Part shown: piece by piece, positions 2,925 through 27,500 of the stretch | How positions within the stretch are numbered: the first letter of the stretch is position 1 | How the letters are laid out: each line of letters opens with the position of its first letter | Assembly: GCA_001730085.1 (NCBI GenBank) | Contig: MDLB01000104.1 | Location: forward strand, 3,117 to 67,116 | Length of the DNA: 64,000 nucleotides | Direction: 5' to 3' | From: PVC group bacterium (ex Bugula neritina AB1) | Lineage (GTDB): Bacteria; GCA-001730085 | Position numbers and translations under genes: made by a program | The notes under the pieces: generated by a model | What the model was told of the DNA's origin: nothing | Databases searched by the model: none | What the model saw: the letters and a program-made list of their open reading frames with translations, nothing else

Positions 2925-2951
2925 AGAAATAAATGATTTTCCTCTATGAGG

Positions 2952-3521
2952 TTAGAAATGCCTCATAGGAGGATTTTGAACACGGTTAGCCATATCATTG
3001 AAGTACTTTCTAAGGATCAAAACTCTACGACCCCTCCAAGAACCTGCCATATAATCAAAGAACCTTGGCATCTGAAGAACCATCCAAGAAGCCAAAAATG
3101 TACGATACTTAATATGAGCAGATAATTTCGGAGATTCAAGAGTCCCCAATAAAGCTAAAAACATAAAAACCACAATCATACCTTTTAAAAAACCAACACA
3201 AAGACCTCCATAACGCTCTAAGCGATCATAAAAGTTTGTTGACTCACCATACTTTTGTGTTGCAAGTTTAACCCCTTGAACAAGCACATACGTGAAAATA
3301 AGAATCACAAAAAAGGAAAAAAGCTTCAGAAAAAAATAAGGTAACCTAACAAAAGTCGCGATTTCTGAAGATAACACGTGTGTGAACTTAAAGGCAAAAA
3401 AAAGTGCTGCCACCACACTTAAAAAACGAAAAACTTCTCCAGTTAAACCTTCTTTCCATCCCCAATAAATCGTACAGAAAAGGATAAAAAGTATAAAACC
3501 ATCAAGCCAATGTATCGCCAC
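2952..3521 (-). CDS. CvpA-family (colicin V production-like) small integral membrane protein
   Basis: 189 aa with 4-5 hydrophobic helices. N-terminal LDGFILFILFCTIYWGWKEGLTGEVFRFLSVVAALFFAFKF is the typical CvpA-like pattern. Assignment is from a general family resemblance only. Confidence 0.45.
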   Translation of the reverse strand: MAIHWLDGFILFILFCTIYWGWKEGLTGEVFRFLSVVAALFFAFKFTHVLSSEIATFVRLPYFFLKLFSFFVILIFTYVLVQGVKLATQKYGESTNFYDRLERYGGLCVGFLKGMIVVFMFLALLGTLESPKLSAHIKYRTFLASWMVLQMPRFFDYMAGSWRGRRVLILRKYFNDMANRVQNPPMRHF

Positions 3522-3595
3522 TGATTTTTTCCTCTTAAGATTCTTTCTTTACCTTTATAGATTCTCAAATAAACACCAAAAGAAAAACTATCTAA

Positions 3596-6500
3596 TTAAG
3601 CAGCTCTTGAATAGATATCTTTATATTCTCCCATACGATCATGCTTAATCCTCACTATTCTTTCCGTGAATATTAAGATCTGACTCACAGAAGGAGTCGT
3701 CTCGGTCACATCTATAGAGGTGTCTCTCTTTAAAGGATATTCCTGCTTATAATTTTGATGTAACTGAACAAGATGTTTATAGTAGAGAACTAGAGAAGCA
3801 TCTTTAAAGCTCTCCCAATCTGTCATGTTTTCAAAGAAATCCTCCGTCGAAAACAAAGAGAAATAACCTAAGTAAGCCAAATCAATCTTATTCATGTAAA
3901 ATTGGTCAAATAAACTTGTATTTGCATTATAAATAGTAGTAACTTTTTCAAGTAGTTTTTGAAAAAAAGATTCAGATTTAATATCTACACCTTCGCTTAT
4001 TGCCTTTTGCGCAAATTTTAAAAATTGGGTTGCAAAAACGTATCCGGCTTGTGTTTCATTTTCTATACTCAATTGAGTATATTTGAAATATTCGTCAATA
4101 TTTTCAGTTTTTTCTAGTTCAGTATAAGGTGATTGCAAAACATAGTCTTTATGTTTACCTTTAAAACGATTAAAAAGAGTAGCAGACTCTACTTGTCCAG
4201 GAGCAGAAGTCCCACCTGACGATTCTTCCACAAAGTCTTTATCAAAACAGTGTGTAAAGATATCTAATTCTAAAACATTCAAAAGCTCCTTTAGGTGATA
4301 GCCTTCAAATCTCACTTCATCTCCCTTTAAACAATTATCTAGCTCTAAGATTTTTTCCTCTTTCTCGTCTAAAAGTTTTTCAAAATCCTCTATTTTCTTT
4401 TCTATAACATTTTTCAAGCGTAACTGATTAGCATTTCTGAGCTCTGAACCTTCTCCTTCAACATACTCCATTTCTTCAAAAATCTTAGTCATATTAAGAT
4501 CTGACGCAAATAAAGACGTAAAAAGTGTTTTCATAGAGGCATAGTTTTTCTTTATATCCTCAATCAAACTATCTTTCTCACCAGCAGGAATATCAGGTGT
4601 CTCAACTTTCCCAATCAGTTGACGATACTCATCTAAGGACTGGACCAAAGTCTGTGCCTGATCTCTATAAAGCAAAGCACTCTGTCTTCTTTTTAGAACT
4701 TCGGGACGTTCCTTTGCATATATTTCTGATAACAACTTAAATAGAGTAATGGAAAAAGCATCTTCGCCTTCACTCGTAGATTTTTTTATTTTGTCTCCAA
4801 GAGCTAATAAAATCGTCCTCCAATCCTTATAGGTGCGGATTTCTATGTACCTCTGATCCCACTTTTCGTGTTGCTCTAAAGACTTACCTTCTTCTCTGGA
4901 GTCACTTAAAGCCTTTCTTAACTCTGTTGACAAATCTGTTTTCAAAGGGATGAATGGATTATCAACTCCAAATGGCCTATTAGCTATAACTGTGCTTAGT
5001 TCTTTAGTGTCTAACAAGATCCTCACACTATTATCATCTTCTTTTCCTGCACCTTGATATTGCTCAAAAAGTTTTTGAAGTTCTGCCATTCCGCCCATCT
5101 TCCCCATGTCAGGTAATCCAGATTTTCCCTCGGAAAAACGTTCTCTAACTTTTAGCCAAGATTGCCCAACAAAGAAAGACATTGGATTAATACGAAAATC
5201 AGGATTGTCCTCGAATTTTGGATTGATTTGGGGATCTTTCCCAAGAGATTTAAAAGATGTTAAACCTGAAGAACGATAAAATTCAGAAAAAAGAGTTTTT
5301 GACCATTCATATTTTTTTTCAGATGCTCTTTTTTCTCCAAGCTTTTCGATAAAATGTTTATTTAAAAAAGACTTTAACTTATAAAGACGACGCCCTGTCA
5401 CAAAGTTAAAAACCCGACGAAAAAACTTCGGCTTTTTCAAAGTATCTTCAAAAAGGGAATGACCTTTTTGAACCATTTCAGGATGTTCCAATAAGGTCTC
5501 CTGTAAAATTTTATCAAAAAGTTGATTAAATTCATTTTCTTTATCAGTTAAGTCAGCAGGATCTTTATAAGATTTATTTTCAATAAGTTTTTTCAATAAA
5601 TCTTTTAAACTTTTGTCATCCAAAGATCCATTTGTTTTTTGGAGCTTTTGAAAAAAGTACTTTTTAAGTAAAGGCTCATTTTTCAAAAAGTCTATCCCTT
5701 TTAAGGTTTTAGAGGCTGCTTCAAGAATCAAGAAATCATTAAAAGAATTGATCCCATGTTCATCGCAAACGCGGGAAGCGTCTTGAAAACCTGATCTTAT
5801 CGTAAGAAAGAACTCTTCGTCATATTTCTTTAAAAATGTATTCAAATCTTCATCTTTCAATCCAGCCTCTTTAGCTAAGGTAAGTGCCTTTTTATAAGAT
5901 GAAAAACACTGTTCACGAAATAAGGTCATCAATTTCAATTGTCTACGCTGTTTGTAGTCTCTTCGGATAGAGCTTTCTTTTTTGAATAACTTCAAAAATC
6001 TAGACTCACGTGGACTAAAGTCTTCTAAAGTTTGCCCAACTTCTTGAGCATTTAAAGAAGCGATCTGTTTCACTCTGTCTTCGGATAGATTATATAATTT
6101 GCCTTGAAAGTCTGCATTTTCATTAAGCGAATGATTATATCCTCCTACTCTTAAAAAATCGTCTTTGCCAGAAAAGTATTCAGAAAGAGTTAAGTAGGCC
6201 AAAGCATTATTATTAAAAAGTGGAGAGTTTTTAACAAGAACAATCTCAGTCGTCTTAGGAGTACCCTTAGAGGCAAGATAATCAACTTTTAAAGTCAGCT
6301 GTGTCACTTCTTTACCTTCGTAGGAAGCAACTTCAACTTTATTTATCTCAACACCATAAATAAAATAAACCTGGTCCACACCATCGGCATTTATTTCGCG
6401 CAATGCTCTATTAAAAGGCATATCAACTTGTACCGTAGACTCTCTAACATATTTGTTAAAATTTTCCAAGTCGTCGTTAAATTGATAAGTCGCAACATCA

Positions 6501-9500
6501 TTGCCTTTAACAACTTTATCTTCTGAGTATTCCAAAGATTCCAAAGAAAGAAACAGAAGTGACCTTAACCAGTCATACTGATCAACAGTCATCCAAGAAT
6601 CTTTCTTTTCATACCAGTGAGAACCCGTTGACTGATACCACTTGAACAAATTCGCACCATTCAAGGTTTTAGGGCCCCTAGCACCAGGCCTTTTCGAAAT
6701 ACCAAATTCTTTGATAACTCTTTTTAAAGCTTCCTTCTTTTTGTCCTCTAAAGAAAGTTTCTCTCCCAAGAAATCAGCAGTATACATCAAATACCAAGCA
6801 CAAGTTTTTTTATTCGCTTTCAAAACTCGTTCAAACTCTTGTTCACTCGTAAGAGAAGACCATTCATCAAAAACCGGTTCTTTAAGTCTACGATTAGCCC
6901 AATAATAATAAGCTTTCTTAAAAAAACCTTTTTTTAGACCCTCTACACGCTTAGCTTGTGCATTTTTAGCTTTATCTAGAGCCTTCTTATAATAAGATGA
7001 TTTCATGATCACATCCCGCGCACTATCCTTAGCCTCCTTAACTAGAGTAGCATCTAAAGATTTGTCTACTGTTCCCAAGTTTTCTTGAAGAGTTTTGCTC
7101 ATAGCCTTCTCAGTAAGAATAGATCTAGTGATTTCTCCTGAATAGGTTTTCTGATTTGTTTTGATCAACAAGTCATTAACTCCTAAACCTTCAATAACTT
7201 TAACAACATCTTTAATGGTAAAAGCTTCTAGCAAACTACCGGCCGAAGAAGCCTTTGCTTCTGAAACAGATCTAGAAAGTTTCAAGTCTCCATCAAGACC
7301 TTCTCGGTGTAGCCTAAAAATCTCCGCCATCTCCGCTTTTAGTCTATTGTAATTAGTATTAGAAGGCAATGCATTAACTGCACCCCAAGGATGCTGATTC
7401 TCTGTAGACAAAGTACTTGCTAACTTAGATTTTACAGTCTCACCTTGCAAAGCATCCAAAAGTTTAATAAAACTCTTTTTGGCGTCTGCAAACATCTCTT
7501 CTAAAACTTTTTGAGTACTCTTCGTATTAAGGGTAACATTTTGTACCGCTTTAGCTTTTTCATTTTGAACATTGATCAAATTTTGCTTACAATTTTTAAA
7601 AGCACTTGCCAACTCTTCTGTAAGATTTCTATAGGGTTTCAACAATTTTATCAATGACTGTATAAGTTGCCTATGAGGGGCATAAAAAGCTTCAGTAGCA
7701 ACATGAAAGTTTTGAGCTCTTTCGGCAGTAATATCATTTTGATTTATCATATGAAAAAACTTCGAAATATTTATTCTTAAGGCGTTTTGATCACCTTCAA
7801 ATAATTCAGAACTTTTAACTTTTCCATCTTTTTCATAATAAAACTTTCCATCCCACGCATCTTTCTTAAAAAACCAAAGCTCTCTGTCTGAATGAAATTT
7901 TACAGTTATTCTCTGACCCTGTTCTTCCAACGTAACTCTTAATCCCCGATCTCTACCAAGACCTTGTTGAACCTCAGACTTTCTCGCTTTATTATCACAT
8001 AAAAATAAAACTTTTTGTCGAAACTTACCTAGTCCAGACATCTCCAAGTTTGTCCCTGTAGCACCTGCCGGAAATAAATACACCGCACCTATATTCAAAC
8101 CACGTGCATTCTCAGTGAAACCGGTGGTATCTCTCATGTTAAAAATACATCCATCTTTATCTTTTAGCAGATTCCCCTTATTAAGCAATAAACCGTCTGG
8201 AACTTTTGATTTTCCACTATCTAACAAGCTCTTCGCCATATCTTGATCAATCAAGCGCGAAACAGAAAAATTAACTTGCTTTGTCGCATTATCTACCCAA
8301 GAGTGATAATCTTCCTTTAAAAACAAACGCCAGTCACCCACAAGATCTTTAACAATAACATCTTGTCCTTTTTCCCCCATCACATTTAATAAAGTTATAA
8401 GATTAGACATATCTGTGGAAATCGTATAATCAACAACCAAAAGATGACCGTTAGGTCCATTTTTATCAATAGTCATCTTTTCCACAACAGCTTTAATTTT
8501 CGTGTTAAGAGCCGCCTCTAATGCTTGGTCAATCTGAATATAATTTTCTTTTCCGCGTTCGCCTACAAGAGAATAGTCTTTACCTAAAACATCCAAAAGG
8601 ACTTTAGCAGCAATTTCTCCACCCTCTAACCTTAATTGAACAACACGTGAAGCTAAATCTAGTTTTTCAGCAGAAGATAAACTTTTACTCTTTATATAAG
8701 AAGCCTCTCTCTTGATAACTGTTAAAAGATTTTCTAGTTTTTCAATTTCAGGATAAATATAACTCTTAACAAGTTCAATATTCTCCAACCCACGAGTATC
8801 ACGATGACTCAAAGCTTTTTCTATAAAAAGTTTAGTAAAGGCTTTTAATTCTGAATTTTGCGCGCAATTGGTATCTAGAAATTTCTGAATATTTTTACCG
8901 CCTGACAAGAAAAATTGAACAATATTTTCTTTCATACTGATGATATATTCAACTTTTTTAGCTGTCATCTGTATACTTTTATCCATTTTTAACATTTCTC
9001 TCAAGGCATTTTCTATCGTTTCTTTATAAGCATGAGAAACCTTATTCTTATTCTCTACACCTTGAATAAAAGCTTCTTTCACACTTGTTTTTTCATTAAA
9101 TACCTTCATTTCACTAGAATGTAATCTTGTCAAAGGAGCTTCTGTATATTTAGCAAAAACATTACCATCTATTAAAATATCAGGTTGAGAAGTTTCCCAC
9201 GTGGAAACACCAAACTGACGTAATAAAGCAACGGAAACTTGTGTAAGAGATCCTGAAAACCCCATAAAGCTCCCACCAGCTTCTTTAATCGCTAAGAGTT
9301 GTTGAGGAATAGAAGTCGAATAGGACTCGGGTTGCAACTTGATTTGACTAGCATCATTTATAATTATTTTTGCATACTCTTTAGGATCTCTATAACCTCC
9401 TTTAGGGATTGTTGATGACAAAGTCACAAGGGCTAAACTCAAGACATGCTCAGACTCGGTGAACCTCTGATCAGGCTGTTTTTCACCACCTGTCATAGGA

Positions 9501-12500
9501 ACAATTTTCATAACTCCACTGGTATCACGAGTGATAAAACCTTTTGAATCAACTTCAAGAAAATAGGCTTGGTTCTGACCAAATCTATTTTGTAACTCTT
9601 TATTAGATGTCAATCCTCCCAAAGCTTGAGCAAACCTATCTAAAAAACGAAAAACAAACTGAGGTGGAGAATAAGGATCCTTCTTACCTTCATCATAAAT
9701 ACTTTTCATACGATTAAATAACTCTGCCTCTGAATATTTCACCTGACCATCATTACTTTTCTCACCATAGGTTTTCAAAACTTCTGATGCTTTCTTACTA
9801 AGAGCATAATCTTTTAAGCCTAATGAAACACCCCAATACTTATCATTCGTTAATCTTTTTAAAAGTTTACATTTCAACTCAGCTGAAAAAGTTACGTCTC
9901 CACCTTGACCAATATCTGATCTTTTAAAACGCAAAGCTCCTGTGCCTAACTCCTCACCTTCTTTCAAAAGGAATTTTTCCACCTTTTGAGTTAGTTTCTT
10001 GCCGTCAAATATTTTTGCGTCCGCCATCCCTTGCACCTTCATCTCGCTTTCGATAAGTTTATAAAGCTCTTGGGTTACATAATACGCAAGAGCAGCATTA
10101 GTTTTCCCAATAGAAACCTCCTGTCCGTCAGTCCCTGTCACAAAGCTTTTAGGATTAAGATATTTATGAACTTCATCAACAACCCTAGTCCCTGAAAGTA
10201 GCTCATTTAAAACTTTAATAGAATCACGACTTTCGGGCTTATGAGGGTTATCCGCATTCAATTTAAGAAAGTTCATTGCATCCGTCGCCGTAAAAACAAC
10301 TCTCGCTTTCATCAATTTTTCAACTTCGGCGGGACCTCCCAAATTAGCATTTCTCAATTGAGCTGTCCAGTCTTTACTCGTGTTTGATCCAAACTCTGAG
10401 TTCAAAATATATCTAAATTGAACATTATCCATTTCAGATATTTTTCCTTCTTCGGGAACCTCTATAACAACCTTATGAGAGTTTCTCCAATAGCCATTTG
10501 AACCTAATAGAAACATCACTACCGCAGGATTCACAGCTGTCGTTTTACCACCACCAGTTGGAATTTGTGCCGCTAAAAAGTCTTTCATCAACAAAGCAAT
10601 TATACCTTCCAACTGAATAGGTAAGAAGTTGAATTCCCTATTATTGAAGAGTTTCATATGTTTCGCAAAAGTCTCCAATTGACGTGTAAACATAAGAAAA
10701 ATAGCTGTAGAATGTGCTATCTTAGCAAGAGACTCTTTATTAAAAGAAGCAGACTTGAATGAAGGACTCTGAGTGTAACTTTTAAGAAGAACGTCTATAA
10801 GTTTGGGCATATCAATCATCCCTTTTTCACCTTGAATTAAAAAGGTCTCATTAAACTTCTGCCACTTAGAATCATAGTCATATGTTTTATCAAAGCAAGT
10901 CTTTTGTCTAGAATAACCGACCTTCTCAGTCATAATATTCTCCATTTGTCTAACGATATCAGACTGTTGCTGTAGAGATAGATTAGAAAGACCTTGCTCC
11001 TTTGCGATTTTACTAATCAGTTCTCCATAATTCAAAAACATAGCAGAATGGCCTGAAGCCGTTTTAGCAAGAATTTGAAATAATGGATCTCCAGCTTGGC
11101 CAAGTTGAAAAGAATCAAATCTAAACGCATTATAAACTTCACTAACTCTTAAAATATTTATTTTTAGCTCTGAAAAAACCTCTTTTAGTTTAGTTTCAAA
11201 CAAGCTTAAACCTTCAATATTTATCCTTAAGTGCGTTATTCCTTGATTCGAAGATTTTGAGAATCCAAAATTATGGTGGACCAATCTATCTATAATCAAC
11301 TCTGCTAAGCCTTTCAAGTTATCTTTAGATAAAGTTGCAAGAAATCCTCCCCTAAGCGATTCTTTTTCCAAGATACTTGTAATATTTTTTTTCAAAAGAT
11401 CATAAGTAAAAGTTCCAGAAGTTATATCAAAACTATCGGGAAGTTGTGCCAAATGATGTGCTTGTTGACCTGCAAAAATATCCATGGCAGCATCTCTAGC
11501 TTTGTTGAACTCAGCATTTTTTTGAAATTCTGACCATTTTTCATGATGTAAAAATTTTTCGTTCAACAACAATTTAGACATTTGAGAAGATTTGGAAGAA
11601 CCATCACCTCTAGAAGTATCTGTTAAGTTTAAATTGCTATGAAGAGAGAGGATCTCTGGCGGTAAAGATTCCTGACCCTCCTTTTGTTTGCCTTTATAAC
11701 TGTCTATAGCTTTACCCAATGAATCTTTAAAGCTTTCTGTTCCAGTCACATGTTTCAAAAGAACAACTTCTAGTTCACCTTCTCCAAAAAAAGTACTCAA
11801 ATCTTTCAAAACTTTTACATTTCTAAAAATAGCCATAAAAACAGCAACTTGTTGCTCTATTTTTAAGCTTTGAAAGTCAGAATATCCCAATTTTTTAGCC
11901 ATAGAGTTCAAAGCACTTTCATCAAGAGCAACTTTTCTAGCAAAGAAAGATCTTTTCGGTATCGGCCGAAAGGAAGCCTTCACTCTTTCTAAAAAGTCAG
12001 CCCGAGCAGTTTGATCTCCACTCAAAACCTCCGATATCCTCTTCAAGTTAGCTAATGTATCTCCATTTAATTGATCTAAGGTCTCTGATAGTTCACCATC
12101 CGAACTGTAACCACCATAGAGAGTTTTATATACTCTTAACTTAGGAATAAATGATTCTGCGAAAAGAAAATAGCCTTTACCTACAAAACTTTCTGCAACA
12201 AAGGATGGATCTGAAACGTTTTGAGCCTTTGCTATGTCATAATAACGTAACATAACCGCAAGACCAACCGTATTTTGAACCAAATTTTCAAGAATTAACT
12301 TAGCTTGTCCATGCTCCCAGTCTTCAGTTTGCTTTGCTTGATGAAGTTTTTGCAAACGATTATAGACTCTCTTTATCTCTACGTCTAAAGTAGAAGCTTT
12401 CGTACTTGAATCCTTAGCTCCAGGTTTAGAATCAAAATCCTTTATAGATGTTTTAAAAGCATCGAAACCTTGTTCTCTTAATAAGACAATATCTTTAAAA

Positions 12501-15500
12501 ACCTTGATTAACATTTCCTGTTGATTAACCGCTTTACCCTCAAAAACCTTATCTTTAAACATGAATTCAGCCAAAGTGGTGAGATATTGAGAAGGCTTTT
12601 CTTCTAAACGAGAGCGAAAAGACTCTGCAACTTTTGTTCCTAGTTGCGATTTCAAAAAGGACTCATAATGCCATCTCTTTAACATCATAGATAAAGAGAA
12701 AGACTCATCTTTTCCTTTGCCAAAAAGTTTTTTCAAAGGTTGAGTCATCTTCTCCATTAAGCTACCAAGCAAATGCTGCATACGCCCCTTCTTCTTCCCC
12801 TGAAATTGATTACTATCGCTTTCTTCCCAAATCCAGCTTCTATATTTATTCTTCCAATAGCGCAAAGTTATGATCCTTCTTCTAAAAGGCATCGCATTCA
12901 AGTTAAGTTGGATCTGCTCTTTGCTAGGGCGCAAGTTATTCCAGAAAAAATCGGTAACTTTATTTGTGTTTCCAGGCTCCAGAAGATACATCTTAGAATT
13001 GTCAAAGTTACTGCTCCTACTTTGTGCTTTAATAAAGATTTGTTGAACATCATCAATCCTACTTATCAGTTTATGGTCTGCCGCATTCTCTCTCAAAAAC
13101 TTAATCAGTTCACTAGGTGTCCTAACCTTTAATTTCCCATTCTCATCCATTTTAACACCCGAAAATTGACCTTTAGCTAACTTTTGTCCAAAAGAGCCCT
13201 TGTAAACTTTTTGATAAGTCGCAATACCTTTGCCCGAAGAAAACCTAACTATACCAGAGTTAATATCTAAGCCATTGTGCTTGCGCTCATAAGATGACCT
13301 ATATAGGAGATCTCCAAAAACATCCATCAATCTATCCCATTGATTAAACATAGTTATCAGGAACTGAACAAAACTCAATCTAGGCCTTTGCGGAGAAGAA
13401 GAGGACTTAGCATCCGATTTTAAAGTTTGTTTCGAGCCTGAATCAAACTTTTTTTCGAAAGAATTAGATCTATCAACCATTTTACCTCTTAAATATCCTG
13501 TGAGTCTCATCCTTAACCCACCAATACCCTGAAGAATCGTTCTATTAACAAAACCATAAATCTTCATAGGCATCGAAGCCAATGAATACACCGTACCCAA
13601 GAAAATCTTAGATATAAAAAATAATGCCTTATAAAGATGTAAAGTGACCGTCGTAAAGCCTAACTCCGCAAGTTCCTTATGCATATGCTTTTCTAAAGCT
13701 TTTGCCAACATATTCACCTGACGGACTTGGGCTCTATCAAGCACTTTAACTTTCTTGATCTCTTTTAAGGTTTTTTTCTGTCTTTGCAATGACTTAAGAT
13801 GCTTATCAGCATATTCAAACTTCTTTTTTAGACCCTGTTTCGCTTGCCTAAAAGTCCTCATAAAAAGCAAGCCAAAAATTCCTCCAACTACACGAGCGAC
13901 TTGATGGTACTTCTCTGTAAAAAGATTGCTTTTATTAAGTTCTCTCTTAACTCTTACATTTTGCTTTTGATCATCTGTATAAATGAACGAAGCATCTACG
14001 GAAGCAAAAACTAAAGGTAAAGCAAACATTGTCCCAACAACGCCTCCAATCAAAAGCATAAGAAATGAAATAACCAACATCCCTAAAAAAACAGCAATAG
14101 CTCCGCCTTTTGCACCTTCGGTCCAATCTGATATCGTATCAACAAAAGTGTCGTATATCCAACCTTCAGGCAAACCTAAAAGACCTTCCATAAAACCAAC
14201 ATATATTAAGGAAAAACCTTTAAGAGATTCCCACATATCGTACATGCTTCTCAAAGCTGTTGCAGCTAATCCCAATAAGCCGAAAAAGAAACTTGGAAAC
14301 TCCACAAAAATAACCGTAATAAAAAATGCTGAATACTTAGAAGCAAGAGATCTCTGTCTATCTTTCTCTTCCTGTGTATCTGCAAGAAAATTTGCTGATA
14401 TACTATGAATAATAATCCTAGTCGCAGAATAAAGCATCCCAACTGCCAAAACCGAAAGAAGCAAGGGGAGAACAGCCCCTCCAAGGGTTAAAGCCATCAC
14501 AGCAAAAAATATACCTCCTAAAAGGTGTAAAAAGGACATCGCCAACTGAAGTCCTACTGTTTTAAACTTATCCTGCCAACCGATGGAGATTGATTGTATA
14601 TCCTCATCTAAAGCATTACGTAAAAGTTCAGCACGATCAGAGTTATCTTCTATCTGATCTGATGCACTATTACTCGTCATTTCTTTTTTGCCTGTAAAAA
14701 GATTAGAAAGAGCTCCAATAGCTGTACCAACAACATTTGTACCAGTTTCTTCGATTAAAATATAAAAACTGATAGCAAAAGCCTCCACCCCTTTGGAAAA
14801 GTCAACATCATTTCGACCTAAGGAATCATAAGCCTGGAGATAGACTTGTTCATTTTGTTGATCGATATTAGCTATAAAGCGTTTTTCTCCGTGATTCAAA
14901 CTCACGATATCAGTCACATTTTCTCCCATTTCGTAAAAGAGCGTGACTTTGGCAAAATCAAAACTGTAATAAGTATAAGTAGCAAGCATATAGCCATAAG
15001 CATTATATGTGTTAAAGTTTTGCTCAAAATCATAAACAAGTGTAGTCTTTTGTCCGTTTTCATCTTTCTTACCTTTTTGCTCTCGGCCCCTTTTCTTTAG
15101 CACAGCTCTCTCTGAATAAATAGCTTGACCTTGTGAATCATATAGGTGATTTCCAGAAGAAAACTCTGAACCTGGATCTTCCGGACCACTTGTTTCTTCT
15201 CGAAAACTTTTCACTTGACCCTTTTTTCGTTGCAATCGTACGGAGATATCCTTTTCCTCCAACTGATAGCGAAAGGACCCTCCGTCAAAGTTGATTATGA
15301 AATCTTTAATAAAAACAACCTCTTCACCATCTTCTGACCAATACTGTATGCGACCTTCTTTACTATCTCCATCATCAATCCAATGCTTTCTAGATCTTTC
15401 AGATTGAGCGTAAGAATGAATTTTTCCTAAAATTCCTCTTGAACGTAAGTTCTCTGCTTCAAAATTATCACTACGATTATAAGTTTTCTCGTCATAAGCT

Positions 15501-18500
15501 TTTTCCAAACCTATCTGATGAGTTACAGATTCGACATATTCCTTATACATATCTTCATATAGTTCAGCAACGTCGGTCTCTGGATCAAACTTTTTAGGGA
15601 CATAGTAAGAAATATTATCTCGTACTGTTTTTGTCTCTGCTCCAGAAGCAGAAATAGCATACTCCGTATAACCTTTAGCTTGACCGTAAGTTGCATCTTC
15701 AGAAGTTTCCGTATAAAAATCGCTATCAACACGACGGACTAAAGAAAAGTCAAATTTATCTTGCATATCCCCGGTAAAAGACCAATGGTTCAAACGAACC
15801 TCTCTCTCTTCGCCTTCAAGAGAACGTAAGCCCGTTTCAATCCCATCATCAATCTCAGGATCTCTAAAGAAATGTAAAGAAAAACCTTTCACATATGAAG
15901 GCAAACCTTCATCAAGTGAAGGAGAAAAAGGTTCCACATCAAAGTTATCTATCCCAGCAGAAAGATCTCCAAAAAGATTAGATGTTTGTATTCCCTCCCA
16001 AGAGTCTACTTGACTCAAGGAAATACGGGTAAACTGTAGATCTTCATTTTTAACTTTGTCCCGACCATTGTAAAGAACATATATATTATCATTGTGAGAT
16101 TGTGTATTTTTTAAGTGAGGGTTATCCAAATGCCTTTCAACTTCACCAATATTCAAAATTCTCTTAGCTTTATTATCACTAAGATTAAAATGATCCTCTA
16201 AACCTGATGAAATTTGTCCAGCAAACGAAAGATCATAGCTATATTTGTTCACAGCTTTATTAAAAACATAATCATAGATACCATCTTCCGCTTTGTCCAA
16301 ATAAAATGAACCAGATTTTTTCCAAGTATTATTTATGTATCCATAATTTTCACCCCGATCACTAAAAATAACCCTCGAATCTATATATGTGCTTCCTAAC
16401 AAATCTTCCTCTTTAGTCAACCCAAAAAGATTCTGCAAGTAATCTTCATCAAAAAAGTACAACTCAGCTTGTTCAACTTCTGATCGAGATTTATTAACTT
16501 CTTTTCCGAAAGAGGTAAAGTCAAAAGGGTCTTCTTCTTTAGTCATTTTTTCTTCTAAGTTTTTCCAGTTTTCGTCAAGAATATCCACGGTAAGATCATA
16601 TGTTCGAGAAGAAGCCTCTTGCCCCAAACGGTATGTTCTGTCTTTCTTTATAACATGTCTTTCGGTATCATTTAAATGATCAAGAATAACTTCGTAACTA
16701 TTGATCAGTTTATCCGTATAAAATTCAGAAGCTACTCTCTTCGTCAATGTATCTTCCAAAATAATCGCGGGCTCAACAGTCGATGTAACTTTTTTAGACT
16801 GAGAAAAAGTCAGAACATTATCTAAACCATCAAATAAAACATCTTTCATGATTTCAAGAGTATTTCTTTGTCTCAAGTCATCTTTTTTTGCTGTTTTATT
16901 AAAAACGATCCGACCTTTTTCATCATAAGATCTGTCGTTTGTAATACTCTCCTGAATTACCAAGTACTCATCTTCTTTGGTATTTCCTATTCCATATTTA
17001 GCTCTATCCATTTTTTCTTTAGTAACAAGGTCTCTGTCATACGCAAGTACTTCTCTCTTAACTTCTTCACGAGACAAAAGACTTTTATTCCCTAAAGATT
17101 CAAAAGATCCAACATCATAATTTTTAATAGATACCTCTTCATTTTTCAAAAGACCCTTATTGTTTCCTGTCTTAAAGTGATCTCTACGAACTTCTCTTGA
17201 TAAGTAGTTTCTTAAAACCCAAAAAGAGGAATCTTCTAAACCTTCTATCCCATTTCTAATATTCACATATTCACGTTCTTCTTCCTCAAAGGTCACTTCA
17301 TTATCATAAACATCAAAAGAAGCATTCAATCTATTGACCATACGTTTAAGATAGTCTTCACCTTTGCTATCTTTTAAAGTCTCAGTAAGAATATACCCCT
17401 TGGATCTACCACGAAAATCTGTGGAATAAACATGTTTTTCTGTCTCTCTAACAGAAACAGTTTGACCATTTATCGTTTCATAAAGAACCTCTGAATAAAA
17501 CTCCTCAAATCCCTTATTTTCAGAAAAAGAAGTCGCCAAACGCTTTGTTTCCAAAACTCTTTGAGGTTTTGATTCATCATGTTGAAAAGATGTATAAGAG
17601 ATCCCACGTCCTTGATGATCCCAAGAGTGGATTTGTTTTTTGACATTCATAACGGACTTCTGTTTTGAAAGATTTTTATCCATCAAATCCGAAATATCTT
17701 TAGCGACAACCATGTTCAAAAGGTTATCTCTATCAAGAAGGTTTAAAACATCAACTTTTGTACTTCTAATATCAACATTAGAAATATAACCACCCTTAAA
17801 GTCATTGTCTTTCAAAATCAAAGAAACACGATCTGTTGAAGAATTCCAGTTTGTTTCTATTTCTTGAGTTGGATTTTCACGATACCCCTCATATGTCAAA
17901 AAACGCTTCTGAATTCTATAGGGATCAGGGGTTTCAGGAGTGAAAGAAACTTTCTCAAAACGTTCAAGTCTTTTACGCGAATCATAAAAATATTTTTCAA
18001 CTTCTGTGTCCAATAGTTTTCCGTATTCACTCATATTTTCAGAGTTGATCGTTTCTAGATTTTCTAAGAATGATGATACTTGAGATATATCATAGTTTTT
18101 ACGAACTTTTTTTATCAATTTAGATGCTGAATTATACAGCATAGAAAAATCACTACAGTTAGTTTCTACAGAAGCCAAACCCTTTTCAACGTCAAGATCC
18201 GCAATATAGTTTTCTGTAACAACCTTGTACGATATAAGATCACCGTTTAAGTTATAAACATGTCCAACCTCACGTTCAATTGAACGAGGAATATCACTAA
18301 CGTCAGCCAAAACATTGGCAGATCGATAAGTCAAAGACTCTTTGCCATTCAAACGCCCTTTTTCATTATAAGAAAAAGACGACTGAATAACCTGTCTTAA
18401 AAAATTATCTTGTGTATTTTTTTCAGAAGAAGCTCTTGTCGAAATGAGCTCATTCTTGCTCAAAACTCGGTCAAAAGCACGATCATAAACAATATCTGAA

Positions 18501-21500
18501 GTTTCCCGATGAAGTTGAACTTGATATGGAGAAAACTTGTTATAGAAAATATCCTGTTGACGATAAGATATAAGCTTAGGGTCTAAAAAATATTGATCTT
18601 TTTTGCTTAAACGATTCAAAGCATCATACTCATTATGAACAATCTCATTCCTAAAAAGATTTTGATCCGAATCATACGACTTACGATTTTCTACAACAGC
18701 TAAAGTATCTCCAACAGTGTTGCCGCTATAGCTCCGACCTATCATCAAACCTCTAACCTGCTTATTATTCGCATATGACAAAGATTCTTCAAGAGTTTTT
18801 CGATCTAAATTATCATACTCAAAATACTTATTATCGGTAACAACAAAGTCAGATTTTGCTATATCTTTTAAAACCTCAGCAGAAGGTAAAGAAATAAAAC
18901 CTTCCTTGTCTGTTTTTATACCTTCAAAAAGATACTTAAAAGATTTAACTTGATACCTTTCTTCTAAAAGACGCCTTTGAAGATCTCCTAAACCTTCAAC
19001 GGTGCCATTTTCCATTAATCTTATATTTCCACCACCTTTTCTATCATAACGAAAATCTTTAACATACTCATATCCGTTTTTAAAAGTTGTGGAGAGAACC
19101 TCTCCAGATGGTGAGGACGATAAAGCAAGCTCATATTCAAGACGATAGTCATTAGCATCATCTTTTTTATAAACAGAAAGAGTTTTGCTTTCCTCAGACA
19201 AAGCTCCCCCTTGAAAAATTTTCCTTAAAGTTTTAATGGGACGACTATATTTATCATATTGATAATATTCTTCAGAAACTCGACCTTTATCATTGTCTTC
19301 AAAAGTCAATTTAGATCCTCTAGCGTACTCCGTAGAAACTTTTTTAGATACTTGTTTATCCAAGTTATACTCATAATTAACTTTTACAGTAAGACCAGGA
19401 ACTTCTTCAAAGTTTTCCTGATCATAACCATAAGTGGTGATCGTTTCCTCTTCAAGCAAACCACTCTGTGTAAAAGTTCTAAAAACTCTCTCACCACGCA
19501 TTTGAGAAAAGTTACCGCCTGTCACATCAAAAAGGGTTTTCTTTGAATATGTCACACGTCCCTCTTCATCAAAACGATAATTATGCGTTTTCTCTATTTG
19601 AGCAGATGTTCGACGTCCTGTCACATCATAATAGGCTACCTTCTTTTCACTCAAGACAACATTTCCCTGAATATCACTTGTAAAAAGATGGGTGATAACT
19701 TTATAAAGGTCACCTTTTTCATTGAAAAATTCTTCACGACTACCTTCTCTTTTATCTTCGGAAAGAAATTTAGAAAGAACCGTCTTCGATTGATCATTGA
19801 CGGACAAGTCCCCTACATTTTCTTCAGGTACTTTGGAAGTCTTCCGAAAATCTACAGATAACTGTTTCCCTCTAGCATCATAGGTAAACTTTCTCGTTTC
19901 TCTATTTTGAAAGTTCAAATTTTCCAAGAAAGAACCTTCTTGAAGAAGTGAACTGAACTCTCCAGAAATGATTTTATCTTCAATAGTCTTATAATAGTCA
20001 GGGTCTAAAAATGATCTTTTTTCCATAACAACCCTATCCATTCTATCGTATAGAAAATCGTAACGTGTTGTACGAGAATATTCTCCCCCTTTATTAATAT
20101 TAGTCACAAAGCGACTTGCAACACGTCCTATAGCATCATATTTCATTTGAACATTAGAGCCTACTTCAAAGTCCCAACGTAAAAATTCTTCATTCCATAC
20201 ATAGTCTTTTCTCTCTTGAGCAATAACTCGATTAGTGTCAAAAGACTTGTTCATATTATCCTCATAGTAATAAACCAAGTCTGTTTTTCTTCTAACATCA
20301 GAGTTTTCATCGTAAAAAAAGTCTCTCGAACGAACAACTTTTCCAGTGACATCATAAGAAGAGATGCGGTAACCTGTTTCCTTCTTTTCTAAATAGCTCG
20401 AATATTTAAAGTTCACATCATAACTACGTGACTTTAAAAGTTCTTTTGTTAACCTAAAAGCTTCTCCAAGGATATGTATCGCAAAAGCAAGCAAGTCGCG
20501 AACCGTTTGAAAAACATCCGATGGATTCAAAAAAAGATTGATAAAGATATTCCTAATACTTTCAATAAGAGTAGGATTAGAGTCATTCAAAGCATAACGT
20601 TCTTGCCACCAAGAAACATACGTATCAATGATCGATGTCTTAACATTTTCAAGATCATCAGATTTAGATTCAAAGTCAGCATCGTTTAACTTATTAGCAA
20701 TCTCTATTTGACCAGTATCTGCAACGTTATATTCGTATTTCTCTATTTTTTGAGAAAGAATTTGACCTCTATGTCCATATTGATAGTCATCATACCTCTC
20801 CTCGCTTTTCAGAAAAAGTCTTGTCTCACCTTCTTTCAACAAATCAAGACTACCTATGCCTGCTTTAGATTTACCCTCAACATAAGCATAGTGCTTTTTT
20901 GAAGAAGAGCGAACATTGTCAAAAAGATTATAGGCAATATCCTCTTCATCACGAGAAATCAAAAGCGATGAACGAGCATCTTCAGAAAAAGCTTTTTTTA
21001 TAGAAACCTTTTTAGAAATAAGACCCTTGTCAAAATCATAAAAGTCTTCAAGCACTTCCTCTTTCAAAAGCCCTTGTAGCTTCTGTACACTAAATCTTTC
21101 ATATTTCTCATACATACGTATACGTGTTTGAGCAATTTTTCCATTAGAGTGATACGTATAACTAATAGAGTTGTAGAGAGATTGATTCATATCGGAACCA
21201 TCTTTTTTTAATGGCGTTTTGAAAAAAATACGATTTTTTACTAAACCATCTTTTCTATACGTGATATCAAGTGTCTGTTCTCGCAAATTATTCAATCTAT
21301 TTAAAGAGTCAACTGTCCTCCGAACACCATTTTGATCATACCCATATATCTTAACCTCATCTCTAGTCACGTTGAAGAAATTATTCTTAGCAATATCTTT
21401 AGATATATCTAGATTTTTTGAACGTACTTCATTCAAGTCCCATAAAGGATTTTTGCCATCAAATAAATCGCCTTGACCATTCAAAGAGTATCCTTTAAAG

Positions 21501-24500
21501 GTTTCTTTTTTAGGCCTATTAGAAGAGTGATCATACCCTTCAATCTCAACAGTACTAATAGTGGAAATATTAAAAATATCTATCGTTAAAAAAGATTTCA
21601 ATATTTTTTCAATACTAAAAAGATTTCCAGTTTTTCCTAAAAGCTGATCAACAACATTTTGAGCAGTTTGCTCAAGAGCACCCGCTTGAACCACAAGAGA
21701 AACAAATTTTGAGCGAAAAGCATTCGATTTATTTTTAAATTCTTCAGAAAAAAATGAACTCAACTCATCTGTCTCTGTTTTCAAATCTAGCAAGTACTCT
21801 TTAAAGTTAGAAATCTCTAGCCCAATTTCTTGCCAAGCATCATTTATCAATCCTATCTGCTGTCTTAAGGAGTCAAGACCATATACAGCTTTTTCATTCC
21901 TAAAAATGACTTCTTTTTGCTTATCTCCATCTTCTGTATAAAATGTCTGTGAATATTGACTATCTTTATAAACAAAGTCAGAAGGATCATTCTTCGAAAC
22001 ATTTTCAGATGAACTATATTTAAATAGGTCTTTTTGAACGAAAACTCTCTGAAAGTTTTTATTATAAGAAAAACTTTGTGTGGACAATTCTATATCATAA
22101 TACTGATTGCCACTTGAGTCAGGATCTGTACCTTCATGAGAAACTTTTCTTAATGTCCAAAGTCCATCTTTTGCTCTAATGTAGCGATATTTAATTTCCG
22201 TTGATCCCAAGATATAGTTTGTTTCAACTTTTCTATTTTCTACAATATTTCCTAAATGGTCCAAAATATCAATATTTGTTTCAAGATATCCTTCGGATGC
22301 ATTCCATTGGATCTTTTTCAATTCCGAAACAGTTTCTCCGTCAGAATCATAAACAAAAACATCTGTTTCAACCGACTCACGATTATTTTTATCATTATAT
22401 GTATACCTAGAAAGAGTTAATTGAAGACGGCCTTGACTATCATAAGAAAATTCAGTAGAAACCAGCAAGTTACCTCTTTCATCAAAAATAGGAGAAGAAA
22501 GATCCTCTTCTGTATAAAAACCATACGATAGGATTTTTTCTATCATATCTGAAGAAAGTCCAGCTTCCCATTTAGAGTCTAAAGAATAGACACCATTATC
22601 GATACGATCCTCATTCTTAGAAATCATTCGACCTGCAATATCATATTTCATATCCCATGTATAACTTATATTTACATTAGCATCTCTATCTTCCGTGCGC
22701 GTATTTTGAGATAAAAGACGCCCCATTCCATCATATGTCATACCCCAAACAGTTTTTTTCTCTATGTTGTCAAAGGTTTTGTTTATCTCCTTATAAGAGG
22801 AAACCTGACCAAGCTTATTATAATGTATATTTCTTCTCTCCAAAAAGCTTGTCACACCATTGACAATTCTTTTTTCAAAAAATGAATCAACTTGACCATG
22901 TGTGTTATATGTATTCGTTCTCTCAGTAATAAAGTTAGAAACAACATTACCACCAGCATATTTATATTCAACATCTTTATAAGAAGTCACTCTCCCTAAT
23001 TGATCATAATCTGTATTAATCCTAGAGGTCTCTTGTGTAATCTCTGGGGTAGAAAAATCACGAATGGTGTCTGTATAACTGATCGATCTACCAAGATTGT
23101 CAAAAATAACATTATCACGAATTGTCTCAATCTGAACAGATTCTGAATCAATGCCAAAGCGTGTCAAAAGCTCTCTATAGGAAGATACCTTTCCTATATT
23201 TTTATCATAAGATAATGCTTCCCACGATGTATGCAAAACCATGTCTTTAGCATCTGAACTCGTTGATATATTCTCATAACTTTTTCTACGACCCAACGCG
23301 TCATAAAGAACATTCTGATAAGAGCTTCTACGCGATCTAGAAAAAATGTTACTATCTTTTGTCGATGCTAAACTACTTTCAACTATTGTTTCAGTGTAAG
23401 CCTCTCTACGACCCAAAATATCATATTTTATATTTTCTAATATAACCTTTTCTAAAAGATCAAGAGATTTCAAACTTCTACTTGCGTCTGTATATCCAAC
23501 AATTCTTCCTAGTTTGTCATATTTAGCACCTAGGCGAACCGTCCACTTACTATTAGATGGATCTGAAGAGTTCCACTCGTGATCACGATAACCCACAACT
23601 TGCCCAATCGCATTATAAGTAATACCAAGGCGTTGCGTTCTTGTTCTAATATCTAAAAGAATACGTCCATCTTTCAATAAAAAGCGACGACCTTCACCTT
23701 TATAAGTTTTCTCTTGCCCTAAACTATTATAAAAAGTAGCATGCCTAACATCCGTTTTGGTTTCTTCTGAATCATCTGTTTTAGAGACCTCTACATAAGA
23801 AAACACCCTGTTTTTATCATACGTGATATCCATTCTTCTAACGCTTGATGTCTCTTTTAAAAGAGGTTCATCTTTCAAATCTTCATTTTTCAAAGGTGTT
23901 TCTTTTTTCTCAAAAACATCAAAGTATTCAACAACCTGACCAACTGTGTTATATCTTATATCACTTCTAGTCTGTTCAGTTGTAAGCCCTGTATTCAAAT
24001 CAAGAGTTTTTTCAACAAAAGATTGCAGCTGACCATCCCCGTTATAAAGCATATTCTTACGGTCAACTTTTTTAAGATCAACAAAGCTAATCAATAAATC
24101 ACCCTTCAAATCTTCTAAAGAAATATCAAGACCATTAAGAGAAAGAGATCCACCTTCGTAAATTTTTTGAATTTGAGTAACCGTTAGGTCCTCCCACTTC
24201 GTAACGCCAGTTCCCATTCGCCCTAGTTTAGAATAGTCCACTTGATTTTTTTCAATAAAACTTCCTTCTCGACGTATTTCCTCACTATAACTTTCAACAA
24301 AACCTTTAGCATCATAAACAGTTGATAATCTTGTAGTCTTCGACCTTTTTTTTAATAAAGGTTCATATTTATAATCAATAAATGTTATCAATTGACCTTT
24401 TTTATTATAAGAAATAGCTTCTCTAGAAGTATTCTCTATCTCATTTTTTTCAAAAAGTATATTCTTTTCAACTTTTCTTAAGAAGCGAATTTTTTCTAAA

Positions 24501-27500
24501 GATAAACTCTCAAAGGCTTCATTAATAAGCGTATTAGCAAAAGAATTAACAATGAAAGGTTCAGTTAAGAAAATCCTCTCTAACTCATGAAATATACTAT
24601 TTTGAAGAGCCAAAGCCTCATCAGAAGCGTTATTAGCTAATTTTCGCTGATCTGCCATATTCTTTTCAATAGAAATATCCGTACGGAGCTCATCAATAAA
24701 GTCCGTCACAAACTTTCCTTTAAAATCAAATGACCAAGGTTGCTCAGATTCTTGTTTCTCTTGCAAGATTCTCTCTAAAAGCAAGCTAACATAGCCCTCT
24801 ATTTCAGAAGACCATTGTTTTTGAGTAGCGTACTTAGAAACAATATCTCTCAAAAGAGCATAATTAGAGGTATGTGAAGATCTAAGAAGCTCTTCACTCT
24901 CATCAGCACCCATCGAGCGACTTTCATCAGCTAAATAAAGTTCAAACTGGTAAGTTTCTCCTCTAAAAAAAACTTCATCACCGGCAAAAAGAAACCTTTG
25001 TTGTTCAGGAGACATCTCATCAAAAGTACCTCCCGCCTTCCAAAAGTCACTCCACATCTCTTCAGTCCATGCGTCTGGAACAACAAAAGTAACTTCTGTT
25101 CTATCCAAAGATTTTCCTCTAAGGATTTTAGTCTCATCATAACTTTCAACAAGACCAACAGAATTATATTCCGTACTTTTTCTAAAAACAGTCTCTTTCA
25201 TATTGGGATCTACGTTATTGAAAGTGGTTTGACGATATGAGTCCAACTGACCGAGCTGAGTATATGTCATCTCATCTTTATGTTGGGAAACAACTTCTTC
25301 AAATGAGAAATCATAAACACGGGCAACAAGGGTATTGGCATTGATCATTTCCAAGTCTTTTTCATTAATAACACCATCATTAAAAAGATCAAAAGCTTTC
25401 CAGTCTTCATCAGTATCCTTCAAAAGACCTTGATCTGACAAATTCATTAACGCATGCATTTTTTGAAGCAAAAGATCTTTCTGATATTTGATCTCCTGTC
25501 TCCTAGTTAAACCTTTTTTACGAGAAAGCTCTCGTGAAGAAACAATCTGTCCCAAGTTATTGTAAAAAATATCAAAATTATCTGTTGTAACAGTTATATC
25601 AGGTGTATCACTAGAAGTTGAAATATCAGTATATTTCTCCATTTGACCCAAAAGGTTATAAGAAATAGAAGAACGCGTCAATGAACTCGAGCTCTGAAAA
25701 AGCTCAGGATAAACATTCTCTGACAAACGCAATGTGTCTCCCTCAAATAAAAGAGACTCTCCCTTTAAAAGTGCAACCTGTTTGTCAACAGTAAAAGAGG
25801 CTCTAGATTTAAAATCACCCATTGTCTTATAGGATAGATTACCTGCAGAGTCTTTAAGTTCAAAAATAACATCATCAAGTTTACCAAGTTTTTCAGAATA
25901 GGTAAGCCTTACATCTTTAAATAACCTTTCGCGACTAGCACTATCATATTCCGTGTTTATACGAAAAGATATTTCTTTAATATCAGGTTTAGATTCATTC
26001 CACGATTCATCAACATAGGAAACTAATCGATTAAAGGAGTCATAGGTTGCTTGATCACGTGAAAGAAACGTTACTTGATCTAAAGTCACCTCTTTTTTTT
26101 CTTGATGACGAACAATAACATTTTCATTCCCTTGAGCAAAAGAACTAAAATCCTGACTTTTACTAGTTGAAAAATATTCAAGCGCATCTGAACTAAGATC
26201 TTGTTCAACAATAATTTCTGACTCAATCTCCACCACAGAAGCATTATCAAAAACACCTGCTTGTTGTTCAAGTGATGCATTAAACTCCTGTTCATCAAGA
26301 TAAAAAGTTTTTGAAGCATCAATTATTTTAAATAAACTTTCACCGCGTAAAAGAGCTTTCTTATGCCTTTCGGACAAAGAATCAAAATCACTTTGTGACA
26401 TGTCATCCGAAAGAACAAAATATTCATCAACAATTTTTTCCATAGGCGTGTCTTCAGGAATATAACGTCGCGTAGCTCTTTCATAACCGATGATTTGACC
26501 CAAAGCATTCTTACGTATGCCAGATTGCAACGTTAAATCATGAACACCTTCTGAATCAACGATCAACTCTTCAAAACTTATTTCGTGCCCCAAAGTATTA
26601 TAATTTATATTATCTTTAACTTTACGAGTATAGCTATCAAGCCTACTTTCAACTTTTAATCTATCAAGAGTTAAATAATACTGAGCGTTCTCTTCAAAAA
26701 GATCATACTCTTCCGGAGAGTCAATACGGTTGGTAACATTCACGTTTTCTCCCGCGTATAATTTCCCTAACTCCTCATCTGTTAAAAGCTTAGCTATCTC
26801 AAGTTCTTTTAACTCCCCTTCTAAGAAAGTCCGCATAGAACTTTCAAATCCATTTCGAACTTCAATTTGATCTATTTTTCTAACATAACCCGCATCATCA
26901 TAGTCGGTCAAAACGCGCTCTGTAGTATCGATAACATTTGGTGAATCACTAGATCTACTTGTTTCAATAAAAGAAAACAATCTCCCTGCATCATCGTAAG
27001 TAACACCGGATCGATTCGTCACATTAAAAACATCTAGTGTTTTCATCCCAAGCCTATCTCTAGAGATTTCTTGATCTCTTCTTGTGTAACTAGAAGAACG
27101 ACCAATCTGATCATAAGACATATTACCTTGAACACTATATATATCTTTTTGAAAAATTTTCTGAAAACTTAAAGGCAGAAAAACAAGTTTTCCATCCAAA
27201 AAAACCTTTTGACCTTTCAAAAGTTTTTGTCTATCCGAAAATCCCAAAGATGACCAGGAGGGTTCCTTAGAGTCATAAGACTCGTCGACCAAAATTTCCT
27301 CAGAATAACCATTTTCTTGTGTTTTTTCATTAAAAGAGATCTCAAATCCTAAGCTATTCGTAAGAATATGAGACTTTGTTGTAATTGTTTCTTTTTGAGG
27401 GGAAGACGACGACCTTTCAACAGACTGCAAAGCAGAGATTTGACCAACATCATCATATAAAGTATAAACTCTCTCCCGAAAAGTAACGATATCCAAAAAG

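Follow-up and report, generated by a model that had tools for sequence, protein, structure and literature searches.

The results presented here indicate that a giant protein of PVC group bacterium (ex Bugula neritina AB1) very probably contains a real ATP-binding lobe of helicase superfamily 2 (SF2), of the DEAD/DExH type, deep within its C-terminal part. The protein is encoded on the reverse strand of the window, the 64,000-nucleotide stretch of contig MDLB01000104.1 (assembly GCA_001730085.1, positions 3,117 to 67,116) that was analysed, by an open reading frame (ORF) of 9,666 amino acids including the stop codon. The lobe appears to be extremely divergent, and the first (N-terminal) RecA-like lobe seems to be the only one that can be demonstrated. 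It lies behind a bundle of transmembrane (TM) segments, in a tail that is probably cytoplasmic. We propose that it is the counterpart of the SF2 or SecA_DEAD-like modules of other giant surface proteins and that it may serve as a membrane-tethered motor or switch, a proposal that stands about evenly between acceptance and doubt.

Motifs and profile matches of the predicted N-lobe

A preliminary description of this DNA had drawn attention to the motifs LPIQ, PTGGGKTTA and DEVH some 7,300 residues into the giant protein, and had read their order and a spacing of ~125 residues between motifs I and II as those of an SF2 DEXDc-type N-lobe. The motifs are encoded where they were described (residues ~7316-7516) and follow one another in SF2 order, with a measured distance of 123 residues from K7351 in motif I to D7474 in motif II. 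The Q-motif-like element also has the expected position. Q7328 precedes T7347 by 19 residues, which falls within the ~17-19 residues typical of a Q motif and is identical to the distance from Q28 to T47 in Escherichia coli RhlE. Residues 7340-7352, FLAAQIPTGGGKT, form a hydrophobic strand leading into the Walker A sequence, as in SF2 motif I, and TRVVDEVH (residues 7470-7477) combines a hydrophobic strand with a DExH box at a distance from motif I that lies within the ~90-130 residues seen for SF2 motif II. The Walker A sequence PTGGGKT is close to the PTGGGKS of E. coli RecQ. An SF2-type Walker A sequence occurs once in the 9,666 residues, and VVDEVH is one of only two DExD/H strings in the whole protein.

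Short motifs are expected in a protein of this length, and their chance co-occurrence in the absence of any P-loop domain has to be considered. In 5,000 shuffles of the giant protein that preserved its composition, Walker-A-like strings arose on average 0.74 times per shuffle and hh-DExD/H strings 0.22 times. However, a Walker A string followed 60-220 residues later by an hh-DE-x-[DH] string, that is, an ordered and correctly spaced pair, arose in only 0.24% of the shuffles.

The profile evidence extends beyond the motifs. Pfam DEAD (PF00270) aligns residues 7326-7481, about 155 residues, to positions 2-131 of its 167 profile positions, from the Q motif through motif II. A match to a P-loop NTPase or DEXDc profile had been suggested as a check on the preliminary assignment, and the DEAD match is significant, with E = 0.0046 for a 1,200-residue query and E = 2.3e-4 (21.4 bits) for residues 7300-7500 alone, at scores of 18-21.4 bits that fall below the gathering score of 26. 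The segment had further been called helicase-like or ResIII-like. The first half of this label is borne out by the DEAD-type signal, whereas ResIII (PF04851) gave no match at E <= 10 with any segment, in the same scan in which RhlE, RecQ and HsdR scored 29.4, 24.5 and 115.4 bits as controls.

Because HMMER filters hide weak matches to other families, a chimera test was used, in which a piece of the giant protein was spliced between anchors from E. coli SecA or RhlE and its Pfam score was compared with those of shuffled pieces and of real helicase pieces. Under SecA_DEAD, the chimera with residues 7320-7497 scored 127.5 bits, compared to 104.8-111.4 bits for four shuffles of the same residues and 104.2 bits when the anchors were joined directly. 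Replacement with the N-lobes of RhlE, RecQ and HsdR gave 123.9, 122.0 and 123.4 bits, respectively, and native SecA scored 392.5 bits. The giant segment thus gains ~20 bits, about 7 standard deviations over the shuffles, which equals the gain of true RhlE, RecQ and HsdR N-lobes. It exceeds these generic helicases by only 3.5-5.5 bits, which provides no clear SecA-specific signal, and the match spans the SecA_DEAD profile only to position ~116. The signal appears to be that of a generic SF2 N-lobe and not one specific to SecA.

A small profile built from the N-lobes of RhlE, RecQ, HsdR and SecA provided independent evidence. With hhalign, it matched the Q and motif I region with a score of 35 (P = 1.3e-4), whereas shuffles scored 12.3 +/- 1.9 with a maximum of 17.2. 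The Q region aligned with that of RhlE and RecQ in this comparison, and motif II was covered by a weak match of 9 columns (score 19). In a phmmer search of the PDB, the Q motif aligned with the TPIQ of DDX52, a non-significant match (E = 0.67). The Pfam match, the chimera gain and the hhalign alignment agree on an SF2 DEXDc-type N-lobe with motifs Q, I and II and candidate motifs Ia and Ib.

Structure prediction added little to these results. AlphaFold2 run without an alignment gave models with a predicted local distance difference test score of 34.6 for residues 7285-8300 and 37.5 for residues 7290-7560. A Foldseek search of the PDB with the latter model returned noise (best E = 0.13, TM-scores 0.1-0.2). 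An alignment of unrelated helicases and SecA was not built to force a fold, since the result would be circular.

The region beyond motif II and the search for relatives

The profile and chimera tests could demonstrate neither a second RecA-like lobe nor a motif III nor a motif VI with its arginine finger. The preliminary description had cautioned that a convincing motif VI was missing, and that caution holds, since the candidates perform no better than shuffles. Candidates picked by eye were GFSGSL at residue 7779 for motif III (or, alternatively, FVTGTDG at residue 7486), LLVVDYTIS at residue 8052 for motif IV, TENARGLNI at residue 8161 for motif V and QQGLGRDRG at residue 8210 for motif VI. 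A SecA-like layout, with motifs III-VI and a PPXD-like insert after DEVH, was rejected as unproven, its pieces having gained nothing over shuffles under SecA_DEAD, Helicase_C or P-loop_SecA. The motif III region and return strand (residues 7752-7835) scored 350.4 bits under SecA_DEAD (shuffles 350.2-352.0, native SecA 399.4). The motif IV region (residues 8030-8110) scored 163.5 bits under P-loop_SecA (shuffles 163.3-167.8, anchors alone 164.1). The motif V/VI region (residues 8150-8240) scored 115.5 bits under P-loop_SecA (shuffles 115.2-117.9, anchors alone 117.1) and 37.4 bits under Helicase_C (shuffles 36.0-38.0), compared to 52.9, 84.5 and 93.1 bits for SecA NBD2, UvrB and RecQ.

Helicase_C (PF00271) also gave no Pfam match. 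A small C-lobe profile run over residues 6250-9666 reached a maximum of 17, with nothing above the null. This profile recovers the C-lobe of HsdR (38) and misses the divergent true C-lobe of DinG (20.5), indicating that its power is limited. The search for parts of SecA was likewise negative: SecA_DEAD (PF07517) had no direct match even at E <= 10, SecA_PP_bind (PF01043) none on residues 7495-7765, and the helical scaffold and wing (SecA_SW) none in Pfam or NCBIfam within residues 4767-9666. P-loop_SecA was not detected, and neither BLASTP nor unfiltered phmmer (--max) found significant similarity to E. coli SecA. Tested against PF07517, PF01043, PF21090 and PF07516, the module does not appear to belong to the SecA family.

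Relatives were sought in a collection of ~15 billion predicted proteins, of which 5.8 billion clusters were searched by word index and 1.84 billion representatives exhaustively. The word index returned nothing with residues 7201-8200 at the default cutoff, and nothing at E <= 10 with either the spliced motif core or the TM and juxtamembrane region (residues 5951-7150). Exhaustive phmmer with residues 7201-8400 gave no matches among the representatives. Scans of GTDB genome contigs and two scans of JGI metagenome contigs found no relatives, and tblastn against plasmids and phages, as well as PADLOC, found nothing. The exact sequence of the giant protein is missing from the collection of 15 billion proteins, although Logan assemblies call it, indicating that whole giants may be under-represented there. 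Fragments would still have surfaced in these searches, and the module is therefore read as an orphan of a poorly sampled lineage. Judged from its sequence, it seems to be assignable to no SF2 family at curated thresholds.

Architecture of the giant protein and the setting of its gene

The features of the protein and of its surroundings are listed in Table 1. The N-terminal ~6,000 residues are acidic (D+E 17.6%, K+R 13.4%) with only 2 Cys, whereas the tail behind the TM bundle is net basic (K+R 15.1%, D+E 13.3%) with 11 Cys. This difference is consistent with an outside/inside partition of the protein. The loop directly after the bundle contains 27 K+R in 133 residues. By the positive-inside rule, this loop and the net-basic tail place the tail, and hence the module, probably in the cytoplasm, the side where an ATPase would need to be. 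The preliminary description had likewise placed the module C-terminal to a TM bundle and presumably inside the cell, and its position in a K/R-rich tail agrees with this. The bundle includes two hydrophobic stretches of ~40-48 residues that are possibly helical hairpins, and a further hydrophobic stretch was noted at residues 6317-6342.

Table 1. Features of the giant protein, its predicted ATPase lobe and the surrounding genes. Positions refer to the window unless L001 is named.
Feature	Position	Strand	Residues	Basis
Giant ORF, 9,666 aa including stop codon; houses the ATPase module	3596..32596	-		ORF list and translation
Signal-peptide-like N-terminal segment, hydrophobic core, ...LSFA/QS	32492..32596	-	1-35	hydropathy peak at residues 12-34; cleavage site placed by eye
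Acidic, nearly Cys-free region of ~6,000 aa, presumed extracellular	14546..32491	-		composition
Dockerin_1 match, weak			1292-1309	25 bits
YD-repeat match, TIGR01643			3282-3301	22.2 bits (cutoff 15.8)
Hydrophobic TM bundle, ~5 helices (count uncertain)	13982..14545	-	~6018-6205	Kyte-Doolittle peaks 2.1-2.75
Net-basic C-terminal tail (~3,460 aa), presumed cytoplasmic, bears the module	3599..13981	-	6206-9666	composition
Predicted SF2-type RecA1 (N-lobe) ATP-binding domain, core of the finding	10154..10621	-	7326-7481	Pfam DEAD, chimera test, hhalign
Q-motif-like LPIQLEG (Q7328)	10604..10624	-	7325-7331	sequence
Motif I / Walker A PTGGGKT (K7351, T7352), continuing TA to residue 7354	10541..10561	-	7346-7352	sequence
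Candidate motif Ia strand KVVIEVPEE	10448..10474	-	7375-7383	by eye; within Pfam DEAD alignment
Candidate motif Ib VVFTATDAMNFL	10265..10300	-	7433-7444	by eye; within Pfam DEAD alignment
Motif II / Walker B VVDEVH (D7474, E7475, H7477)	10166..10183	-	7472-7477	sequence; within DEAD alignment
cvpA (colicin V production protein) directly downstream of the giant gene, then dnaG, rpoD	1101-3521 and L001 12384-14276	- (window part)
Bat/MoxR-type operon, complete	36352-44473	-
Na+-translocating NADH:quinone reductase operon nqrA-F	47278-53044	-
tRNA gene, single	55129-55201	-		Rfam RF00005, 64.6 bits

Very little else in the protein is recognisable. The sub-threshold DEAD match is the only family match in the C-terminal 4,900 residues, and the tail matched no other family of Pfam, NCBIfam or PADLOC. 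In the whole protein, the only additional recognisable domains are the single Dockerin_1 match and the single YD-repeat match. The preliminary description had regarded the extracellular part as an Rhs/teneurin-type YD shell. The basis for this is weak: there is one TIGR01643 match only, no match to Pfam RHS, no DPxG[LWFIM] string anywhere in the protein and no internal repeat detectable by BLAST. Yx[YF]D strings number 10 in the whole protein, nine of them between residues 3751 and 5877. The protein does not qualify as a canonical Rhs protein. A reading of the tail as Rhs cargo or toxin was rejected for lack of the DPxGL core motif and of repeat structure.

The giant gene is native and intact, and an assembly artefact is excluded. 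The 9,666-residue product is also called in two Logan assemblies. One of these, SRR4020084, is an independent assembly whose DNA is identical to the window over positions 1-13521. The contig from the other, SRR4020083, has 2 substitutions relative to both the window and SRR4020084, at window positions 5747 and 3892. Both are non-synonymous (N8950K and N9569D) and fall in the part of the tail that follows the ATPase lobe. GC content is even (0.32-0.37) across the giant gene and its neighbours. A separate gene or an internal expression signal at the module was considered and rejected; no competing plus-strand ORF there exceeds 54 residues, and promoter-like and terminator-like sites are no more frequent than in shuffles.

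The giant gene is set among core housekeeping genes and not in an island. Upstream lie trkH/trkA, the Bat/MoxR operon and nqrA-F, and downstream cvpA followed by dnaG, all unrelated to the giant gene. Together with the adjoining rpoD, dnaG belongs to the classic macromolecular-synthesis operon. The Bat/MoxR operon encodes a MoxR AAA_3 ATPase, a DUF58 protein, a DUF4381 protein, two VWA/BatA-like proteins, a TPR protein as well as BatD; a protein with TPR and SH3 domains is encoded next. Genes for type II secretion or carbohydrate import were not seen among the neighbouring genes scanned. The tRNA gene is the sole Rfam match at the gathering score in the window. NqrB from the window has at most 58% identity to any of 80 loci returned from GTDB species representatives, indicating that the source lineage is either poorly sampled or masked in the collection. 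The best matches among these 80 loci are scattered over Planctomycetota, Acidobacteriota, KSB1, Bacteroidota and Bdellovibrionota-like metagenome-assembled genomes.

Possible roles of the module and its relation to known systems

Giant membrane proteins that have an SF2 P-loop module behind their anchor are already known. Giant membrane-anchored proteins of Omnitrophota ('Archaeovorin' and 'Dockerin-type') and of some Actinobacteriota bear divergent SecA_DEAD modules, in part with SecA preprotein-binding modules (West-Roberts et al. 2023, bioRxiv 10.1101/2023.11.21.568195; 2026 preprint 10.64898/2026.06.07.730766). In the 'Dockerin-type' proteins, SecA-related domains come after TM anchors situated close to the C-terminus, and export of the giant or of accessory proteins has been suggested as their role (West-Roberts et al. 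2023, 10.1101/2023.11.21.568195). Among 916 long Omnitrophota proteins, one of the two largest clusters by architecture is that defined by PF07517 (bioRxiv 10.64898/2026.06.07.730766). The view of the preliminary description that an NTPase module is not expected in such a protein is thus outdated for giant proteins, in which SecA_DEAD-type modules behind TM anchors are reported to be common.

The architecture reported by West-Roberts et al. (2023), a very long ORF with a signal or TM anchor and an SF2 module C-terminal to that anchor, is found in the present protein, which has both a signal-peptide-like N-terminus and predicted TM helices. It also resembles the published giants in its high divergence, its lack of SecA scaffold/wing domains and its weak dockerin signal in the ectodomain, which parallels the 'Dockerin-type' class and was counted in favor of the proposed relationship. 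Unlike those modules, which are recognised by Pfam SecA_DEAD and SecA_PP_bind, the present module is recognised by neither, and at 9,666 residues the protein falls just under the 10,000-residue threshold of the 2026 survey (10.64898/2026.06.07.730766). Secondary SecA_DEAD proteins have been described in Planctomycetes, Verrucomicrobia, Proteobacteria and others, in linkage to type I secretion genes (Kamneva et al. 2015, PMC4452313). Like the present protein, these are non-canonical carriers of an SF2 N-domain, in their case of the SecA type, that are distinct from the housekeeping SecA. However, those proteins were detected by SecA_DEAD and are adjacent to type I secretion genes, whereas neither the profile match nor such neighbours were seen here. 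To judge by the searches, this instance seems to differ from the known cases in combining the lack of a SecA profile match, of an SF2 family at curated thresholds, of a detectable second lobe and of relatives, the last of which chiefly sets it apart.

In the proposed mechanism, the lobe would bind ATP through Q7328, K7351/T7352 and D7474/E7475 and would cooperate with a downstream region too diverged to be recognised. The module would be a membrane-tethered motor or switch in which ATP binding and hydrolysis, at the membrane's inner face, drive work on the tail itself or on some polymer. Most plausibly this would help to secrete or assemble the giant protein or a partner, and in function the module would be an analogue of the SecA_DEAD-like modules in other giants. 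Catalytic competence is suggested by the catalytic residues, which are intact although the sequence around them is unrecognisable. We infer that a second lobe may exist, too divergent to detect, and that the module may have a role in secretion. The parts of this proposal differ in strength. That the module forms a complete two-lobe motor is somewhat doubtful, and a SecA-like role in handling polypeptides is rather unlikely. The energy-coupled export or signalling suggested in the preliminary description is speculation.

Several results weigh against the proposed mechanism. The DEAD match, although significant, is sub-threshold, and the margin over generic helicases under SecA_DEAD is small. 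Neither a second lobe with motifs III and VI nor SecA_PP_bind, P-loop_SecA or SecA_SW was detected. Without homologues, the conservation of residues cannot be assessed. Uncertainty in the TM helix count extends to the topology and to the side of the membrane on which the tail lies. Finally, the C-terminal module would be translated after the ~6,000-residue ectodomain, which argues against co-translational self-export in cis; a role in secretion would therefore be exerted in trans or post-translationally.

It is possible, but unlikely, that the module is a conventional nucleic-acid helicase or translocase at the membrane (DExH, RecQ-like or ResIII-like) whose second lobe is too divergent or is interrupted by an insertion. 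The best profile match is to DEAD/DEAH box helicases and not to SecA_DEAD, PTGGGKT and DEVH resemble the PTGGGKS and DEAH of RecQ, the Q spacing is that of RhlE, and DDX52, matched across Q and motif I, is the top helicase in the PDB search, if not a significant one. The failure of the C-lobe profile to find even the true C-lobe of DinG is compatible with a hidden second lobe. However, DEAD and RecQ helicases combine PF00270 with PF00271, whereas here the first stays under its gathering cutoff, neither a Helicase_C lobe nor ResIII nor any other helicase family was matched, and the motif V/VI region stayed within the range of its shuffles under Helicase_C where SecA NBD2 gained ~16 bits. The distance between Walker A and Walker B (123 residues) exceeds the hand-counted 93-105 residues of RecQ and RhlE, and the membrane-tethered giant context is foreign to these helicases. 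Furthermore, the tail has no recognisable domain for nucleic-acid binding or nuclease activity, and the flanking genes (cvpA and dnaG on one side, trkH, trkA and the Bat genes on the other) are unrelated housekeeping genes.

An equally improbable alternative is a true SecA-type polypeptide motor that has diverged to an extreme degree, with NBD1, a PPXD-like insert of ~280 residues and NBD2 at residues ~8040-8230, acting in protein export or threading. Its architecture would be analogous to that of the published giant proteins. Like canonical SecA (NBD1-PPXD-NBD2-HSD/HWD; E. coli b0098), the module has a Q-like motif, a Walker A and a DEV[DH] box and, behind motif II, a large insertion; its score against the generic DEAD profile is likewise low (29.3 bits for SecA, 20-21 bits for the giant protein). 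By eye, 'TATDAMNFLKLNADN' resembles 'GTNNEYGFDYLRDNM' of SecA, 'STSIPQQ...GFSGSL' resembles the SecA return strand and GMTGTA ('ASITFQN...GMTGTA'), and 'TENARGLNI' resembles 'TNMAGRGTDI'. The SecA_DEAD chimera of the giant segment also scored slightly above those of generic helicases (127.5 versus 122-124 bits). However, every profile test of a SecA-specific part (motif III, the NBD2 pieces, SecA_PP_bind) was null, and no motif III, NBD2, PPXD or scaffold/wing signal accompanies the module. Unlike canonical SecA, which is soluble and to which BLASTP and phmmer --max found no significant similarity, the module is fused to a membrane protein. The logic of export in cis would also be weak for a C-terminal motor.

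A new SF2 family not derived from SecA is similarly improbable. Such a module would be a membrane-tethered ATPase, possibly single-lobed or radically remodelled, whose hydrolysis of ATP in the cytoplasm would be coupled through the TM bundle to the extracellular part of ~6,000 residues. If true, this would point to inside-out mechanical or signalling control of an adhesin-like or teneurin-like giant, or to delivery of tail domains, and confinement to a poorly sampled lineage would explain the lack of homologues.

Less likely still is that the N-lobe is a single-lobe relic or a non-motor nucleotide-binding domain with a structural or nucleotide-sensing role, whose second lobe was lost from an SF2 or SecA-like ancestor. 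The N-lobe alone is detectable, the motif III-VI candidates fail their controls, and the divergence is so great that 1.84 billion representatives yield no relative. However, motifs Q, I and II have kept their catalytic residues despite this divergence, which argues for selection on nucleotide chemistry, and the negative result for the C-lobe comes from profile methods of limited power. Chance co-occurrence of motifs, to which the length of the protein, the sub-threshold Pfam score and the lack of a supporting structure or homologue would lend themselves, is very improbable given the rarity of the spaced pair in shuffles, the ~155 residues of aligned profile, a chimera gain level with true helicase N-lobes and an independent profile that scored 35 where the null reached 17.2 at most.

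The proposal of a divergent SF2 lobe that acts in the cytoplasmic tail of a giant surface protein bears on a class of proteins that was recognised only recently and is nearly uncharacterised, and in which an SF2 or SecA-like ATPase behind the anchor is the only obvious energy-transducing element. The finding opens no new question by itself; it adds an entry to the catalogue, together with a prediction that biochemistry could test. It indicates that such a module can diverge beyond the SecA_DEAD profile and beyond all sequence searches and yet retain its residues of the Q motif, Walker A and Walker B. Surveys that rely on Pfam to identify domains therefore probably undercount these modules, and selection may preserve nucleotide chemistry in them and not SecA-specific features.

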